Shown here piece after piece: positions 14,186 to 57,180 of a stretch of 64,000 bases of DNA; position 1 is the stretch's first letter; each line of letters starts with the position of its first letter. Under the pieces are notes generated by a model that was not told the origin of the DNA, did no database searches, and worked only from the letters and a program-made list of their open reading frames with translations. Location of the stretch: the NCBI RefSeq assembly GCF_004010195.1, contig NC_057718.1:93740179-93804178 (forward strand). Reading direction: 5' to 3'. Source of the stretch: Chiloscyllium plagiosum. Lineage: Eukaryota. The translations under genes and the position numbers were made by a program.

Positions 14186-15918
14186 ATAGACAATAGACAA
14201 TAGGTGCAGGAGTAAGCCATTCATTATGATTATGACTGATCATCCACAATCAGTATCCTGTTCCTGCCTTATCCCCATAACCCTTGATTCCACTATCTTT
14301 AAGAACTCTCTTTCTTGAAAATATCCAGATACTTGGCCTCCACTGCCTTCTGGGGCAGAGCATTCCATACACCCACCACTCTCTGGATGAAGAAATTTCT
14401 TCTCACCTCTGTTCTAAATGGCCTACCCCTTATTTTTAAACTATGTCCTATGGTTCTGGACTCAGCTTGGAATCTGTCTTCCTGTTCTTGCCACCAAAAT
14501 GGATAACCACACATTTATCCACATTAAACTGCATCTGCCATGCATCTGTCCACTCACCTAGCCTTTCCAAGTCACCCTGTATTCTCATACATCCTCCTCA
14601 CATTTCACGCTGCCACCCAGCTTTGTGTCATCAGCAAATTTGCTAATATTACTTTTCATACCATCATCATTAATGTATATTGTAAACATCTGCAGTCCCA
14701 GCACTGAACCTTGTGGTACCCCACTGGTCACTGCCTGCCATTCCAAAGGGGACCCGTTTATCACTACTCTTTGTTTACTGTAAACCAGCCAATTTTCAAT
14801 CCAAGTCAGTATTTGCCCCCAATACCATGTGCTCTAAATTTGCTCGCTATTCTCCTATGTGGGACTTTATTAAAGGCTTTCTGAAAGTCCAGGTACACTA
14901 CATCCACTGGCTCTCCTTTGTCCATCTTCATAGTTACATCCTCAAAACATTCCAGAAGATTAGTCAAGCACAATTTTCCCTTCATAAATCCATGCTGACT
15001 CTGATCTATCCTGTTATTGCTATCCAAATGAGTTGTAATTTCATCTTTTATAATAGACTCCAGCATCTTTCCCACCACTGACGTCAGGCTACCTGGACTA
15101 TAATTCCCTGTTTTCTCTCACCCTCCCTTCTTGAAAAGTGGGACAACATTAGCCACCCTCCAATCCGCAGGAACTGATCCTGAATCTATAGGACATTAGA
15201 AAATGATTACCAATGCCTCCACAATTTCGAGAGCCATCTCCTTAAGTACCCTGGGATGCAGACCATCAGGTCCTGGGGACTTATCAGCCTTCAGACCTAA
15301 CAGTCTACCCACACCATTTCCTGCCTAATATAAATTCCCTTCACTTCATTCATTACCCTAGGTCCTTCAGCCACTACTACATCTGGGAGATTGCTTGTGT
15401 CTTCCCCAGTGAAGATAGATCCAAAGTACCTATTCAACTGTTCTGCCATTTCCTTGTTCCCCATAATAAATTCACCTGTTTCTGTCTTCAAAGACCCAAT
15501 TTTAGTCTTAACCATTTTTTTTTCTTTTCACATACCTAAAAAGGCTTTTACTATCCTCCTTTATATTTTTGGCCAGTTGCCTTCGTACCTCACTTTTTTC
15601 TCCACGTATTGCCTGTTTAGTTATCCTCTGTTGGTCTTTAAATGTTTCCCAGTTGTCCGGCTTCCCGCTCATCTTTGCTAAGTTATACTTCTCTTTTATC
15701 CTTATACAGTCCTTAACTTCCCTCGTCAGCCCCGGCATCCCCTGCCTCCCCTTAGGATCTTTCTTCCTCTTTGGAATGAACTGATCCTGTACCTTCTGCA
15801 TTATACCCAGAAATACCTGCCATTGTTGTTACACTGCCATCCCTACTAGGATATTGCACCATTGAACTTTGACCAGCTCCTCCCTCATAGCTCCACAGTT
15901 CCCTTTGTTCAACTGCAA
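14186..15918 (-). mobile_element. CR1 LINE ORF2 (RT) with internal deletions, plus 3' end
   Basis: SQHGFMKGKLCLTNLLECFEDVT..VDVVYLDFQKAFNKVPH (RT); FFIQRVVGVWNALP; tail repeat near 14190. Confidence 0.95.
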
Positions 15919-22253: not shown

Positions 22254-23061
22254 TTATGACCAATGAAGGCAAGCATGCCAAATGCTGCCTTCACCACCCT
22301 GTCTGCCTTCAGTTCCAGTTTCTAGGAACTATGCACCTGCACCCCTAGGTCTCTTTGTTCGGCAACACAGCCCAGGCCCCAACCATTAACTATGTAAGCC
22401 ATGCCCTAGTTTGCCTCATCAAAACGCAACACCTCACATTTATCTAAATTAAACTCCATCTGCCACTCTTAGTCCATTGGTCTATCTGATCAAGGTCCCA
22501 TTGTACTCTGTGATAATTGCCTTCACTATCCATACATCACCTATTTTGGAGTCATTTACAAATTTACTAACTATACCTCCTATTGTCACATCCAAATCAT
22601 TGATATAAATGACAAAAGGTAGTGGACCCAGCACCGATCCTTGAGGCACACCACTGGTCACGGGCCTCCAATCCTAAAAACAACCCTCCACCACCACCCT
22701 ACCTTCAAGCCAATTTTGTATCCAATTGGCTGGGTCTCCATGGATCCCATATGGTCTAACCTTATGAACCAATCCACCACATGGAACCTTGTTGAACGCT
22801 TTGCTGAAGTCCATTGCCTTCATTAATCTTCTTTGTCACCTCTTCAAAAATCTCTATCAAGTTAGTAAGACATGATTTCCCATGCATAAAACCATGCCGA
22901 CTATCTCTAACCAATCCGTTCTTTTTCAAATGCTTGTAAATCCTGCTTCTCAAAATCCCCTCCAACAACTTACCAACCACTGACGTCAGGCTCACTGGTC
23001 TATAGTTCCCTGACATTTCCTTACAGCCTTTCATAAACAATGGCACCATGTTAGCCAACCT

Positions 23062-33029: not shown

Positions 33030-34155
33030 CATTGAAAGCCTGTGATCAGAGGTGTACCACAAGGTTCAGTACTGGGAACCTTGCTGTTTGTTATGCCCAT
33101 TAACGATTGGGCTGTGAATGTAGAAAGTAAAATTGGTATACTACCACCTGATGAAGGAGCGTCGCTTCGAAAGCTAGTGTGCTTCCAATTAAACCTGTTG
33201 GACTATAACCTGGTGTTGTGTGATTTTTTAACTTTGTACACCCCAGTCCAACATCAGCATCTCCAAATCATTGGTACATTTACAGTTGACATAAAAATTG
33301 GTGGATTTGTTGATGGTGAGGAGGATGGTCTCAGGGTCCAAAAGCTTGTGATTTTATTTGAAATGTTGCACTCTAATTCGAACCTGTTGGACTCTAACCT
33401 GGCATTGTATGACTTCTGACTTTGTCCACCCAGTCCAATACCCAGGGTGTACTGAGGAACAAAGGGACCTTGGTGTGCAAGTCCACAGATCCCTGAAGAA
33501 GTCAGCACAGGTGGACAAGGCGATGAAGAAGGCATATGGGATACTTACCTTCATTAGCCAGGGTGTAGAACACAGAAGCAAGGAGGTCTTATTACAACGT
33601 TATAAAACATTGGTTAAAGTATGGGTGGAACACTGTGTTCAGTTCTGGTCACTGCACTGTTGGAAGGGTGTGATTGCACTGGAGAGGAGATTCACCAGGA
33701 TGTTGCCTGGGATGAGAAGTTTCAGTAATGAGGAGACATTGGATAGGTTGGATTTTTTACCTTGGAGTAGAAGAGGCTGAGGGAGGGGGCCTGATTAAGG
33801 AATAAATAATTATGAGAGGCGTACACAGAGTAGATCATGAGAATCTCTTCCCTATGGCAGATCCATCTAAGACCAAAGGGCACAACCAAAAGGTGAGGAG
33901 CAAATGGTTTGGAGGAGATATGAGAAAGCCGTTTTTCACCCAGAGGGTGGTTGATATATGGAATGTACTGCCTGAAAGGGGGTTGGAGACAGATACTCTT
34001 TCAACATTTAAGAGCTATTTGAGTGAATACTTTAAAACACCAGAGCAAGACAGGCAATGGACCAAGTGCGGGTAAATGGGATTAACGTATTTTACTAATT
34101 ATTGGTCAGCACAGATGAGGCAGGCCAAAGGGCCTGTTTCAATGCTAGATGACTA
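33030..34155 (+). mobile_element. CR1 ORF2 RT C-terminal half and 3' end, with PLE mini-insertions at about 33141-33270 and 33345-33440
   Basis: GVPQGSVLGTLLF; EQRDLGVQVHRSLKKSAQVDKAMKKAYGIL; FFTQRVVDIWNVLP. Confidence 0.92.
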
Positions 34156-50519: not shown

Positions 50520-50697
50520 GGATATCTGCAAATGGCTGGATGATGTCAATGCACTGGTCACTGGCAGAATTCAACCCGGGAAAGTGTTAGGTAATGCACT
50601 TGAGAAGATCCAACAAGGCAAGGGATTACAGTGTGGGCCCTGGAAGTACTGGGGATCAGAAGGACCTTGATGTGAACATCCGCAGATCCCTGAGGGC
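50520..50697 (+). mobile_element. CR1 ORF2 fragment, left half of the CR1 interrupted by R2
   Basis: FNPGKC*VMHLRRSN..DQKDLDVNIRRSLR; aligns by eye with 33450-33497. Confidence 0.82.
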
Positions 50698-50719
50698 AGT
50701 AACTATGACTCTCGCTAGG
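50698..50719 (+). other. 28S rRNA-derived leader at the R2 5' end
   Basis: AGTAACTATGACTCTCGCTAGG vs 28S AGTAACTATGACTCTCTTAAGG (the 22 nt upstream of the R2 site): 16 contiguous identities, 19/22 overall. Confidence 0.85.
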
Positions 50720-51019
50720 TCGCATCTCCCATGGGAGCCTGGCTTGGCTGGTTGCTCTACTGCTAATTTTTACAGGTATTTGACTATCACCTCGATGGTC
50801 TAGCCTCCTCATTGGAAATAATTTGCTGACTCGTCAAATTGACCATTTGAGAACAAACATGAAACCGCTATTGATCTGTGAGGATCACAATACACGATAG
50901 CCTCAGGTATCACCACAAAAAGAGTTGTGGATGATGGGTTGGGCTGCATTACCAAGAACAAACACCCTTGTACATGGCAGCAATCAGCGAGAAATGCCAA
51001 TACCACCTGGAGTCCGGTG

Positions 51020-51335
51020 AGAATCCCTACAGTGCTGTATCAGGCCATTCAGCCCATCCTGTCCCTCCAAAGAGCATCCCACCAAGATCCACCCAGCCTT
51101 GTAACCATGCATTTCTAATGGCTAATGTATCTAGCCTGCACACTATGGGCAATTTTGCCTGGCCAATCCACATAGCATTGGACTGTAGGAGGAAACTGGA
51201 GCACTCAGAGGACACCCATGCAGACATGGGAAGAATATGCAAACTCCACACAGCCAGTCACCCGAGGCTGGAATCCAACCCATGTCCCTGGCACTAAGTG
51301 GCAACAGTGCTAATCACTGAACCACCATGCTGCCC
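51020..51335 (-). mobile_element. HE1-like SINE nested in R2
   Basis: Reverse-complement copy. Confidence 0.87.
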
Positions 51336-52239
51336 TGTTTGCAGCATCCATGGTGTTTTTTTTATTTACACCTTTGATATTTGAGTTTCACACCAACCAG
51401 TTCAGAGATGTTACTGCCCACCTCTGGAGCTGCTTGGATTTGAGCCTGGGTGTCCTGGCTCAGAGATATGGACACCACCAGTGCACTGATGGTGACTTGG
51501 TTTCCCTTGCTCCTATGTCAATTTTGTGCTGTGACTGTAGACTAATGAGCAGTTAGATATCCCAAAAGAATTTGACATAAACAAGATATCGCCCCATCAA
51601 ACTCAGACAATAAGCTCCCCATAAACAGATGGAGGAGATGGGATGGAGACTCCAAAGATGGCTTTCTGTCTCCTCAAACCCATCTGGTTCTGTATCTGTA
51701 TGGGGACAAGATTCCAGGAGCCAGGATCAGAAGACCCAACTTACCAGTAGGTGTGGACTTTAACGTTATGGAAGGGAATGTTGAGGGAGTCCCAACCAAA
51801 AGCACGTGAGTCTACATTACAGACGCCAAACTTCTATAACAGCTTATAAAAGTGAGGGCGCAGGTAATTCAGAGAATAGCATGTTGTGAGCAGGCCATTA
51901 TGCCAAGTGTGATGGCAGATACTGAACTGAACAGCTCAGAGCTTACAGGTGCCCTGCGTGGAAACTCAAGCTTACATCCAAGATTAGCCTCAGCAAACAC
52001 TGTAAGCACCCGGAATTGAGAAGCTAAAGCGCTTAGACAGAGACAAGATTGATTCTAAATGTGAAAGAAGACACCAGCTGTGGGCTGAGCAAGAAATACA
52101 ACTATTCCTTCAATCACAACAAAGTTTTGCGGAGTGTAAATTTATTAGTAGGGCGATTAAGGGTATCCTCAAGAGTCAAACACTGAAGGAAATCTCAGAT
52201 AAGTGCAGTGCATTGCAGAAATCCCACATGGCAACCTGT

Positions 52240-52506
52240 CCAGCTTTGGGCAACTGGCTGTGTGGAGTTTGCACATTCTCTCCGTGTCTGTGTGGGTTTC
52301 TTCTAAGTGCTCCGGTTTCCCCCCACAATCCAAAGATGTGCAGGTTGGGTGAATTGGCCATGCTAAATTGCCCATAGTATTAGGTGCATTAGTTAGGGGT
52401 AAATATAGGGTAGGGGAATGAGTTTGGGTACGCTACTCTTCGGAGGGTCGGTGTGGACTTGTCGGGCTGAAGGGCCTGTTTCCATACTGCAGGGAATCTA
52501 ATCTAA
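52240..52506 (+). mobile_element. HE1-like SINE (head missing) nested in R2
   Basis: Core and tail. Confidence 0.87.
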
Positions 52507-52575
52507 ATGGATGGTTTGGCCCAGGAAAGGGGTGGGGGGGCTCTCTAATTCACATGAGGGTTATTCAATCACTAG

Positions 52576-52694
52576 GCAAAAGTGAGGACTACAGATGCTG
52601 GAAACCAGAGTTTAGATCAGAGTGGTGTTGGAAAAGCACAGCAGGTCAGACAGCATCCGAGGAGCAGGAAAATCGGCGTTTCGGGCAAAAGCCC
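52576..52694 (-). mobile_element. Short family-1 PLE element nested in R2, 14-bp TSD
   Basis: TATTCAATCACTAG at 52562-52575 and 52695-52708. Confidence 0.85.
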
Positions 52695-52909
52695 TATTCA
52701 ATCACTAGCAAGTTTCTCCAATCAACAGGACATTAATGAACAACTTACTCAGGCTTAGGAATGACTGGGTCAAAGAAATACTCCAAGGTCAGAGCGCAGG
52801 GACTGAAATTCATTGAGTGCATCGCTAACCTTTTGAATTCTGGCTATGACTCAAATAGACTGGATCTTAGATTGACAAATTAGTAATGAAAGAGGCCCAG
52901 GAATGCTAG

Positions 52910-53260
52910 GAGGAGTTGATGGCCTTGTGGTATTGTCCCTGAACTGTAAATCCAGAGGTCAAGGCAATGTTCTGGGGCCTGGATTCAAATCCTGCCACAG
53001 CAGATGGTGGAGTTTGAATTCAATAAAAATCTGGATGATGACCACAAAACCATCATCGACTATTGGGAAAATCGCATCTGGGGTTCACTAATGCCCTTTA
53101 GGGAAGGAAACTGCCATCCTTACCTGATCTGGCCTACATGTGACTCCAGACCCACAGCCGTGTGGTTGACTCTTAACTGTCCCCTGGGCAATTAGGGATA
53201 GGCAATAAATGCTTGGCCTAGACAGCAACACTCTCATCCTGTTAATGAATTAAAAAAAAG
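52910..53260 (+). mobile_element. tRNA-derived SINE (SacSINE1/Deu-SINE-like) nested in R2
   Basis: B-box-like GGATTCAAATCC; GGGAAGGAAACTGCCATCCTTACC..GGCCTACATGTGACTCCAGACCCACAGC; A-rich end; family name is from recall. Confidence 0.75.
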
Positions 53261-54282
53261 GTAAAAGCCAGAGGACAGTGGGCGAAGAAAAGACAATAAT
53301 TCAGAGAAACTCAAATATCCTATAAAAAGGATAGGCATCAGTTAGCCCACCAAATCACTGGGGGCTCTGGCTATTTCTCGATGTCCTCTTTCAGAAGAGA
53401 AGCTTGAAATAAATTTCCACAAAAATGGTCAGTGCCAACCGAAAAGGCACTGGCTTTTCAAAATGTTCAGGAAGGAGGAAGGAAGGTTAATTAACGTGCT
53501 CCATAGATGGAGGAGAAGTCAGTAACACCATCTTAGACACGAAAAATCCACCAGGCCCAGATGGGAAGATATCCCAGTCATACCTTCGGAGGGTACTACA
53601 TGCCTATGTTGTATCTATTCGTTATGGTTATGATCATCTGCGAAACCTGGACACTCTCAAAAAGACTGAGAGTCTTAATTCCCAAACCTGAAGGTCAGGA
53701 AAACTGTAACAAAATATTTACAATGTGGGGCCCATTACTGTCAGCCCAATTCTGCTTGGTAAAGTCACTAAGATCGTGGCAAAGAGGTTTAGTTCTGTTA
53801 TTCAGAGAAATCCTCAGCAGAAAGAGTGTCTTGCAGAGACCCTGGGTTGCAGTGAAAACATCACAATCCTAAATTACATCATTCAGGATGCAAATGGGAA
53901 CAAGAAGGACCTTGCAATTGTTTTTATTGATCTGGCTGAGGCATTTGACACAAATGGTCATAAACTTGTAATGAGGGCTCTTGAGTGAGTAGTCTGCCCA
54001 AATCATTCATACAGTTGATTAATTGCCTTTATATGGATAATTCAACGATCATTGAGGGCAATCACTCAAAAACAAATCCAATTAAGATTCAGAAAAGAGT
54101 TGAACAGGGGACTGTGTCCCATATGCTAATCAGCTTAGCGTTGGATCCATTAATAAGTACTCGGGCAGAAGGTAGATCAGGAGGGACACTACCCCCTGGA
54201 GGATGGAAGAATGAATTACTTTGCTTTAGCTTTCACAAATAACATAGTACTGATGAGTGACTCTTATGGTGGGATGTGATGA

Positions 54283-54637
54283 GGGTGACGATGGCCTAGT
54301 GATATTACCACTGGACTGTTAATCCAGACACCCAGATAATGTCCTGGGGACCTAGCTTCAATTCCCATCATGGAAGATAGTCGTATTTAAATTCAACAAA
54401 AATCTGGAATTAAGAGTCTAATGATGACCATGAATCCATTGTTAGCAAAAAAACCCATCTGGTTCACCATTGTCCTTTTGGGAACAAAATCCGTCATCCT
54501 TATTTGGTCTGGCCTACATGTGACTCCAGATCCACAGCAGTGTTGTTGACTCTCAACTGCCCACTGGACAATTAGGGATGGGCAATAAATGCTGGATGAG
54601 CCAGGAATGCCGTCATCCTGTGAATGAATTAAATAAA
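54283..54637 (+). mobile_element. Second copy of the same SINE, nested in the R2 RT domain
   Basis: Colinear with 52910-53260. Confidence 0.75.
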
Positions 54638-56468
54638 GGAAGAACCTTCAAATTATTCAGTCCTTCTGTGAGAATATGGGGTTAGCTATTCAATCGCCTA
54701 AACCAAAGAGTTTCACGTCATGTACAAAGACCTTTCTGTATGATTTTGAAGAAGGTTGGAAGATTTGAGTGGTGGAAAGATTCAATTTATATTCCCCCCT
54801 TCCCCATCCCCCCACCCCAAAACCATCAAAGGAGACCTTGAGAAATATTCTGGAGCACATATTGACTTGTGGATTGAAGGGGGTGTGTGGGGGTGAGGGG
54901 GTGTCACAGAAACTGAGTGGGTCAGGAAGGTAGAGATCCTGGTTAGCCAATCTGAATATGGCTGCCATCTGCCCTAACCTCAGGTCACTTGTCACCCCCA
55001 GACTACACTATAATCTTATTTTAACAAAACAGTTTCCATAAATTTGATTTAATCGTAAGAAAAGCCACCAAACCGCACCTCCACCTACTGCTGCATGCAA
55101 CAGATGGCATTTCATGTGCCTGAAACAATGTTGGAAATCTTGTGTTATCGAAACTCGAAGTGCAGATCACGATTGCTCTCATAAGGAAGAGGGAATCCTT
55201 GCAAGACTCTAGGGATCTGCCTCTTTTCAATTCTCAAAGATTAACAATTTAGACTCTGTTAGGAAATTGACTCAACTTAAGGTCTTGAAAGAGGTAGAGC
55301 ATTTTACTGTTGAACTGAAAACAAGTCCTTCAATGGTGAGTGTCAACCTACAGAAACTATCGGGACAGATTATAACAGAATCCGATCCAACCCTGTTGAT
55401 GGTGGTGGATGGAGTGATTAGGAGTTGGCTAAATGGGTTAAATTATCAAGCCACGGAGTTGGGATCAGCTATTTTAAGATTGACATGACCTTCAGCTCTT
55501 GGATGCAATTAGTATGTAATATAAAATCACCATGGATTATTGCTTCACGGTAACCTATATTCGAACAAGACAACTTTAGCTAGATATAGGCCTCCAGCCC
55601 AGAAAGAGCGTAGGAGATGTGAGTCCCCACTGGAAACTATATCACATATGTCAGGTTCTTGCACATTCATGAAAAAGTCTAAGAATTAAGAGGTACAGCA
55701 TTGCTAAAATATAAGAATATGTAGGGGAATACAGTTGGGTAATCTAAATCAATCTCTGCCTGAAGGATAAAGAAGACCACCTTTGGAAACCAGACTTGTT
55801 CTTCAACAAGATAGTCGTGGTCAACGTGACCGTAGGGTTTGAAGATGGCAATAAATCTCTGGAGAAGGCACGATTGGAAAAGGTTTTGAAATAGAGGCAT
55901 TTCGATTGGCAGGGCTGACAGCTGGAATAGAAAACCATTCTGTACTTTGGATTTGTGACGGGAGTGAGAGGCAAGGGGGAAAGAATAAAACAACAGCTCA
56001 ATGAACTTCCCGGGGATCCAGTGGTACAACTCATTTTGCACAGTAGCATGACATAGCCCTGATGTTGGAGATTTGCATATCTTAACTGACAGGTGAGAGT
56101 TTAATTAATTGCAGGGCGTTGTATAGATTAGATAGGTTATGTTAGCGATATGGGTGAGGTGTAAGGGCACTATAGGTATATTTCAACTATGGGTAATGGG
56201 AGGGGAAAACAACATGGGATATGGTATTAGTTATCTGTACATAATAAGTATTAACTGTGGAGGGAGCAACAGATGATTTTTTTTCAGTATTCAAACCAAA
56301 ACAGTAATAGCCTCAGTTTCTGACCAGTGGGTGTTTCCTGTATGATTAGTTCAGTAGTCCCTCTGCCACTGATATGTCAATAATCCCATCATTTTCCACT
56401 AGAAATTCTTACATGTTGACACGTGGCAAACAAACTTGGACAAGACACTCACCTGAGTGTCCTCCAAA

Positions 56469-57180
56469 TAGCAGGGAGGATAAAGGGAAGATGGTTAAGA
56501 AGGAATAAGAGACACTGCCTTTCTTAGCAAAAGCAATGAAAACAAGAGCAGAGGGAATTTTGTGGAACAATGCAATAGTCCCAACCTGGGCAAGAAGTTC
56601 CAGGTTCCAATCCTAACTGTTCCATGGATGTGTCGTCAACAGGTTGGTTAAAAGTATCTCCAAGAGTGGAGAAGTTATTCTGGAACTGTATTAAACATTG
56701 GTTCGGTTACAACTGCAGTTCTGGTCCCCATATTATAAGGAGGATGTGATTACACCGGAGAGGGTGCATAGAAGATTTACCAGTAATGCTGCCTGGACTG
56801 GAAGGTCCAAGCTATGAGCAAAGATTGTTTTCCATGGAGCAGCAAAGGTTGAGAGGGGACCTCATAGAGGTGTGGAAGATAATGAGAGGCATAGAAAGAA
56901 TGGATAGGAAGACACTTCTTCTATTAGCAGATGGATCAAAATCCTCAGAAAATGTTGCGGAGGAGATTTTTTTTTCCACTCAGATGGAACTGACTACCTG
57001 CAAAAGTAATTGGATTAGAAATTCGCATAACCTCTCAGCAGCATTTAGATATTCACTAACTGCTATAACTTCCAGGGCTCTGGGACAAAAGCTGGAAATT
57101 GAGGTTAGTGTCGACAAAGCTTTGTTGACCAGCATAGATCTGATGAACCAAATAGCCTTCTCTGCACTACAAGTGACTAA
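56469..57180 (+). mobile_element. CR1 right half, resuming after R2
   Basis: TAGCAGG..ATGGTTAAGAAGG..CTGCCTTTCTTAGC (compare 33500-33560), then QFWSPYYKEDVI.. and MLPGLEG..RLRGDLIEVWKIMRG. Confidence 0.82.

Follow-up and report, generated by a model that had tools for sequence, protein, structure and literature searches.

A decayed R2 retrotransposon in a CR1 repeat of the shark Chiloscyllium plagiosum and the recurrence of stray R2 insertions at two CR1 positions

R2 retrotransposons normally insert into the 28S gene of the ribosomal DNA (rDNA), and rare, sequence-guided insertion outside this gene is known already. Non-28S insertions of R2Bm (Xiong et al. 1988, cited in PMC10499050) were guided by sequence to single 28S-like sites, and the accessible parts of the citing article mention no multicopy secondary target, unlike the shark CR1 repeats described below. 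The off-targets of R2Tg in human cells share a match of 4-5 nt downstream of the insertion point, a match at -25..-19 with T-20 and a T/C-rich patch near -9 (PMC12222951). Two flatworm families, R2NS-1_SMed and R2NS-1_CSi (clades D and C), are reported as non-specific and have many copies outside the 28S gene, and R8 and R9 are named as R2-derived families with changed rDNA targets (both PMC5035012). R8 and R9 are a precedent for target change in the R2 clade; theirs is a distinct new target, whereas the shark alternatives reported here lie in a long interspersed element (LINE) and are non-exclusive. The new targets of R8 and R9 are rDNA sites. We analysed a stretch of 64,000 nt of Chiloscyllium plagiosum (NC_057718.1, positions 93,740,179 to 93,804,178, forward strand), called the window in the following. 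It contains an R2A-type element, long dead and outside the rDNA, in a repeat which we take to be a CR1 LINE on the basis of an earlier note and of its reverse transcriptase (RT) motif.

The closest described elements are the shark R2A elements R2-1_STig, R2-1_SCa, R2-1_CCar and R2-1_CPu (PMC13188248, Table S2) and the catshark proteins P0002 and P0003. They share with the window copy the domain order, a length of 4.2-4.7 kb and a 28S leader; the shark R2s were curated (2026) as rDNA elements, and the window copy belongs to an older branch and is dead. The accessible text of PMC13188248 is silent on dispersed copies in sharks and on CR1 hotspots, with 0 occurrences of 'CR1' and 'off-target', and searches of the open-access literature found neither dispersed shark R2A nor such hotspots described. 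In the shark genome, stray R2 copies repeatedly strike two single CR1 positions. These strays carry the same three-feature signature as the R2Tg off-targets, but the latter were engineered and below 1 % of reads, whereas the shark insertions are natural and fixed, with up to a third of one lineage at one repeat position (PMC12222951). From the R2NS families they differ by belonging to clade A, by a retained target motif and by the presence of 28S-inserted relatives (PMC5035012).

A first-pass annotation had described a full-length R2 outside the rDNA that splits one contiguous CR1 at a 28S-like junction. Location and split were confirmed: both flanks are CR1 and align end to end with the majority of 37 CR1 copies, the left one to -1 (50696), the right one from +1 (56469). 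The right breakpoint had been placed correctly, the left one had been set one base too far, at 50697. The alignment revealed neither a deletion nor a duplication of the CR1 target. The reconstructed empty site, CCCTGAAGG^TAGCAGG, is identical to 28S at 12 of 14 bases over -10..+4, with further identity at -28, -27, -25, -23 and -20, as the proposed mimicry of the 28S site had implied. A pattern search for the empty site within the window gave no match. The unbroken CR1 segment indicated earlier at 33485-33560 is homologous, but represents a variant without AGG^TAGC. The earlier account of the 5' junction had missed a 28S-derived leader, an exact 16-mer (Table 1). As many R2 ribozymes cleave the rRNA co-transcript 28 nt upstream (PMC3774820), such a leader is what a template born in rDNA would be expected to leave behind. 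A short stretch likely is the remnant of a ribozyme core like that of hepatitis delta virus (HDV); an Rfam scan had no ribozyme match.

The 3' end of the window element, used as query in a DNA search of the genome, had one match, itself. The genome-wide comparison of 3' junctions was therefore run with related lineages. In two protein searches of the genome, the best 150 of 377 and the best 150 of 414 candidates were R2-like and located on most chromosomes; the sample comprises the best-scoring matches, and counts are at least the values given. Two main lineages, A and B, were formed, which both have kept three zinc fingers (ZnF) and the Myb domain. Lineage A has intact open reading frames (ORFs) and copies with 28S at either end (L037, L048); lineage B is related to the catshark proteins P0002 and P0003. 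In trees without R4, NeSL and Utopia outgroups, the shark R2 clade adjoined turtle R2 with a support of 0.99-1.0, which places the RT in the R2 clade as had been expected. The window copy was a long branch on the B side (support 0.96 in one tree), grouped with two other old copies; among the well-sampled lineages, B is its closest.

The census counted distinct 3' junction contexts, identical contexts having been collapsed beforehand. H1 denotes the CR1 position of the window copy, H2 a second position, in the CR1 RT. Of the 59 distinct 3' junctions of lineage B, 19 were at H2 and 3 at H1 or the homologous site of a sister CR1; long 28S flanks were present at 2, and the other 35 lay elsewhere. 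The 56 junctions of lineage A and two old sister copies comprised 19 in 28S, 2 at H1, none at H2, 5 tandems and 30 elsewhere. The census leaves out 12 of the 60 regions in one set, which had no 3' end in range, as well as L227, L240, L247, L252, L254, L272 and L278 (cut short or score <30); L278 is cited as an H1 match outside the counts, and L232, in an H2 CR1 with a deletion, was tallied among the junctions elsewhere. The difference in H2 use between B and A was significant (Fisher p=8e-5, non-28S, non-tandem sets). H1 was struck by four more independent copies, a 5'-truncated B1 (L172), a lineage-A copy (L284), an old A-sister (L282) and another old copy (L283); L172, L284 and L282 were verified to have CR1 on the upstream side too, while the 5' end of L283 was not reached. 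Two further copies (L285, L286) occupy the homologous position in a sister CR1. At H2, all 14 copies with a checked 5' flank had the matching upstream CR1 and differed in their 5' junctions or truncation points, and two zero-deletion junctions (L204, L206) fixed the nick. The H2 label was not clustered on the B tree (16 changes versus 15.4 after shuffling). Distinct 5' ends and the scatter over the tree identify the H2 insertions as independent events. By chance, with generously assumed site counts, about 0.0007 insertions are expected at H2 and about 0.004 at H1, compared to the 19 and 5 observed.

Of the two explanations offered initially, an off-target event or an R2 lineage retargeted to CR1, neither is right alone. 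An isolated accident does not agree with several R2 lineages at the same CR1 position and 19 of 59 B junctions at H2; a switch of the lineage to CR1 is not supported, with 35 of 59 B junctions elsewhere, two 28S-flanked copies, unclustered H2 insertions and a B-type element in the zebra-shark 28S gene. Many non-rDNA copies do lie in unrelated sequence, as had been considered in case the TAGC junction was coincidental, but the recurrence at H1 and H2 and the motif enrichment described below speak against random flanks.

Several arrangements were observed beside the census. At L166/L188 (C5:91.33 Mb), a full-length lineage-B 5' end is joined to CR1 sequence from downstream of H2 in reverse-complement orientation, as though the copy had gone into H2 backwards; its 3' end was not reached. 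Two B copies (L177, C12:55.55 Mb; L178, C7:90.78 Mb) lie near one position of a third common repeat, the 3' junction of L178 with 14 nt matching 28S. Four sets share a 3' flank (L200/L208/L210; L189/L237; L251/L258/L260/L267; L124/L126); the probable reason is duplication after insertion or transport within another element.

The stray sites follow a recognizable rule. The heptamer GGGAGTA, located at -25..-19 in 28S, was present with no more than one mismatch within 32 nt upstream of 12 of the 33 lineage-B sites that are neither H2 nor 28S, compared to 1.1 expected (p=2e-10), and its enrichment was the strongest among 28 heptamers of the 28S upstream region. The B junctions elsewhere had a T at +1 in 35 of 35 cases after a one-base boundary adjustment, and 18 of 35 started with TAG. 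These non-hotspot flanks started with TAGC in 10 of 35 and with TAGA in 3 of 35 cases and were nearer to the 28S tail than to the H2 tail. H1 combines a near-perfect core with T-20 in register. H2 has a perfect GGGAGTA at a spacing one base further out than in 28S, and exactly this +1 spacing is tolerated by R2Bm (PMC10499050). Genome-wide, 13,357 exact GGGAGTA-N18/19-TAG sites were found, compared to 19,514 for the reversed control. A manual count assigned 51 of the 100 first-listed motif sites to H2. With CR1 supplying about half of the best sites, the one-third share of H2 insertions is accounted for and an adaptation specific to CR1 is not needed. Empty H2 sites numbered 7,416 (match within 3 of 34 bases), the corresponding count for H1 was 213. 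A T at -11, the more 28S-like base, was present in 9 of 14 occupied H2 sites versus 7 of 56 exact empty H2 sites on C1 (p=2e-4), the patterns for occupied and empty sites differing slightly in length; restricted to the three empty H2 sites in locally compared DNA, the test gave p=0.08. The excess at occupied sites points to a base-level read-out. A sister CR1 subfamily accounted for 15 of the 100 first-listed motif sites (GGGAGTA-N19-TAG) and was hardly used by lineage B, possibly by L194 only.

The sources of the lineage-B strays seem to have resided in the rDNA. In 28 full-length B copies, identity to 28S was found in 17 of 28 at -28 and dropped to 4 of 28 at -29. Two B copies are flanked by 28S, L190 with 158 nt upstream and 689 nt downstream and L195 with a 63-nt tail. 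According to Table S2 of PMC13188248, the zebra-shark R2-1_STig has the canonical 28S upstream flank, and its N-terminus, compared by eye, is B-like. A B-type element in the zebra-shark 28S gene, the leaders from -28 and the 28S tails point to sources in the rDNA. The B copies have long terminal branches (median 0.075), as expected of copies dead on arrival. Reads and contigs of four runs were compared to the lineage-B 3' end: too few reads reached the junction to decide the matter, and the loose ends beyond the B 3' end in two further organisms, on 2-3 contigs each, were of mixed kinds and unlike 28S. Lineage-A copy L045 and lineage-B copy L195 each have exactly 63 nt of 28S tail, followed by unrelated DNA; other 28S tails measured 51, 76, 217, 263, 366, 401, 533, 539, 689 and 840 nt.

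We consider it probable that leaky rDNA R2 lineages caused these insertions and that CR1 supplies their best near-matches in thousands. A source element in the 28S rDNA would be co-transcribed with the rRNA, and its ribozyme would free it by a cut 28 nt upstream of the insertion site; the leader boundary shows this release for lineage B, and the leader remnant suggests it for the window copy. The R2 protein would then recognize a short target in two parts, one being GGGAGTA at about -25..-19 and the other a nick site that begins with T(AG), possibly aided by a T/C-rich patch near -12..-8; the enrichment of these features is shown by the junctions. By analogy to published work on R2Tg and R2Bm, RT6a, ZnF1, ZnF2 and the restriction-like endonuclease (RLE) may perform this recognition. 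H1 and H2, located in abundant CR1 subfamilies, would happen to fit the rule; the census shows that they act as recurrent secondary targets, and lineage B differs from lineage A in its tolerance of H2. Copies outside the rDNA would lack an RNA polymerase I promoter, be dead on arrival and persist as fossils, and the rDNA masters may have been lost through the turnover generally known for rDNA.

Several points weigh against this explanation. The GGGAGTA motif was first spotted by eye in the same flanks that were later used for testing, and at the window site the -25..-19 stretch matches it poorly. An older CR1 variant that was in the genome while lineage B was active could also account for the T-11 excess. 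The A/B contrast at H2 is sharp, and a simple shared rule does not explain it. In a second tree the B-side support of the long-branched window copy was only 0.48, and none of the trees was rooted with R4, NeSL or Utopia; with this weak placement, the target rules of lineage B are extrapolated to the window copy. Among the rDNA contigs of this assembly that look intact, none was found to contain a lineage-B copy, and the 28S-flanked B junctions were only 2 of 59, both on dispersed fragments. For these last two reasons, rDNA-resident B masters are something that we infer.

The strongest competitor, although improbable, is that lineage B evolved a true second target at CR1 H2 and for a time propagated outside the rDNA, with the 28S leader kept as part of the ribozyme. 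It would account for 19 of 59 B junctions at one base with none in lineage A, for the lack of B copies in assembled rDNA, for the uniform 5' end, with leader and element fused, of the older B2 copies, and for an RT6a loop that differs from that of birds and between A and B. However, the H2 copies are spread over the B tree, none of 14 checked copies brings the H2 flank into a foreign site, and the non-hotspot flanks are 28S-like rather than H2-like. The fused B2 5' end also occurs in the 28S-flanked L190, and the H2 share of insertions does not exceed the H2 share of the best-matching sites. A dedicated CR1-targeting lineage is less likely than leaky rDNA R2s; as a clade it was rejected, since 22 of 59 B junctions were at both CR1 sites together and the H2 copies were unclustered. 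With a similarly low probability, lineage B would be part-way through a target change, with a real affinity for H2, a second safe haven and replication without rDNA. If true, recurrent near-matches in multicopy repeats would be stepping stones to new targets for site-specific retrotransposons.

Insertion of R2 RNA in trans by the endonuclease and RT of another LINE is very unlikely. Many dispersed copies have a 28S tail of 51-1228 nt followed by unrelated DNA and could be read-through retrocopies, but the tail-less copies including the window copy have the A-run|T(AG) junction and the upstream motif of R2's own target, and the window junction has no target-site duplication. A non-specific R2 family like R2NS-1_SMed or R2NS-1_CSi, with a TAGC junction by chance, is hardly credible: such families have been described (PMC5035012), and the junctions in unrelated sequence amount to 35 of 59 in B and, tandems excluded, 30 of 51 in A, but recurrence at H2 and H1 far exceeds chance, GGGAGTA is enriched and 19 of 56 A junctions are 28S. 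This class was rejected on the enriched motif, the single-base hotspots and the existing 28S-flanked relatives. Equally remote are false hotspots from a single R2-into-CR1 chimera copied by the CR1 machinery or by segmental duplication: duplicates do exist (L200/L208/L210, L189/L237, four copies on C8), but identical junction contexts had been collapsed before counting and the hotspot copies, unclustered on the tree, differ in 5' truncation, junction and R2 lineage; the distinct truncation points led to the rejection of chimera amplification.

The preferred explanation, leaky rDNA lineages, bears on applied and general questions. R2A proteins are under development as tools for inserting genes at specific sites, and what is known of their off-target rules comes mostly from cell assays; more than 100 natural junctions in a shark genome reproduce the signature of engineered R2Tg. 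A third of the stray insertions of one lineage can end up in an abundant host repeat, and target tolerance differs between two sister lineages whose domain sets are the same. How R2 retains or changes its target, a question of long standing, becomes directly testable. The interest is carried by this family-level pattern; the window copy taken alone is an ordinary dead fossil.

The two lineages also differ in structure. The DNA-reading RT6a loop reads K-D-S in birds and N/R-K-T in sharks and differs between A and B; from the sequences it is a candidate for the difference in specificity. Dispersed lineage-A copies (L033, L038, L040, L043, L047) start at their own 5' end without a 28S leader, unlike B, and A and B probably self-cleave at different sites. 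On small contigs, lineage-A copies L025, L127, L128, L134 and L138 form head-to-tail joins in which the 3' end is directly followed by the next 5' start. A lineage-A match on a chromosome (L113, C24:16493151) has an open frame of 1555 codons, unusually long for R2, and a 28S tail of 1228 nt.

By its protein the window element belongs to the R2 clade, but it is not a canonical 28S-inserted copy. The translated comparison with shark, turtle and bird R2 gave the domain order ZnF1, Myb, RT, thumb, CCHC, RLE and 3' untranslated region (UTR). The complete domain series claimed in the first-pass annotation thus held for the order and for a 3' UTR of 412 nt; in the zinc-finger series, ZnF1 is recognizable, ZnF2 a short remnant and ZnF3 not recognizable. 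ZnF1 and Myb are recognizable though decayed, and the C-terminal CCHC and RLE are both present with substitutions. The element is full-length in its span, its reading frame is not: many stops and frameshifts leave no intact ORF, the YADD-type RT motif has become FTNN, and the first Cys of the CCHC and the second Asp of the RLE have changed. For an RT fragment (53710-53985), the top matches among solved structures (PDB) were R2 proteins (R2Tg E=2e-13, R2Bm E=0.02). Pfam found in the window element only RVT_1, below threshold, and a short RT fragment used as query among longer proteins had no match. The best protein match was catshark P0002, with 43 % over 556 positions in an alignment anchored on the window copy.

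Table 1 Features of the window (positions within the 64,000-nt stretch)
Feature	Position	Strand	Remark
R2A element, decayed, full-span	50697..56468	+	4216 nt once nested inserts are removed
28S-derived 5' leader (28S -22..-7)	50698..50713	+	exact 16-mer without a second copy in the window; leader of relatives starts at -28
Likely HDV-like ribozyme core remnant	50803..50815	+	aligns with conserved core of 28 lineage-B 5' ends; partner strand after it decayed; putative role
ZnF2 remnant, ZnF1, Myb, all decayed	51890..52230	+	translations versus shark, turtle, bird R2
ZnF1	~51944-52030	+	translated comparison
Myb	~52066-52230	+	translated comparison
RT and thumb	53420..55284	+	frameshifted, interrupted by insert 54278-54636
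RT	~53420-54875	+	
Thumb	~55025-55284	+	
CCHC knuckle and RLE, decayed	55600..56056	+	stop at 56054-56056
CCHC	~55600-55670	+	
RLE	~55745-56056	+	
3' UTR, 412 nt	56057..56468	+	closes with short A run; end resembles lineage-B ends by eye
Left half of split CR1	50569..50696	+	intact through -1 of nick; last 55 bases align with CR1 majority; repeat matches from 50569
Right half of split CR1	56469..57145	+	starts TAGC; CR1 alignment
Unbroken homologous CR1 segment	33445..33640	+	variant without 28S-like core; CR1 alignment
Nested SINE-like repeat	51020..51340		appears antisense; up to 57 matches in genomic DNA compared
Nested short repeat	51374..51490		up to 5 matches; ends approximate
Nested SINE-like repeat	52232..52507	+	up to 65 matches
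Nested short element	52578..52708	+	14-bp target-site duplication, copies at 52562 and 52695
Nested SINE-like repeat, A-rich end	52909..53260	+	ends approximate
Nested SINE-like repeat	54278..54636	+	resembles 52909-53260; ends approximate

Six inserts are nested in the element (Table 1), four of them resembling short interspersed elements (SINEs), and sum to about 1556 nt. Without them 4216 nt remain, the length of lineage-B copies and in agreement with the 4.2 kb estimated before. The short element at 52562-52708 is young, with up to 94 % identity to other copies and 105 matches. Two regions on the minus strand of the window, 14833-15810 and 22593-23010, had weak translated matches to RT-bearing proteins and are probably CR1 RT fragments.

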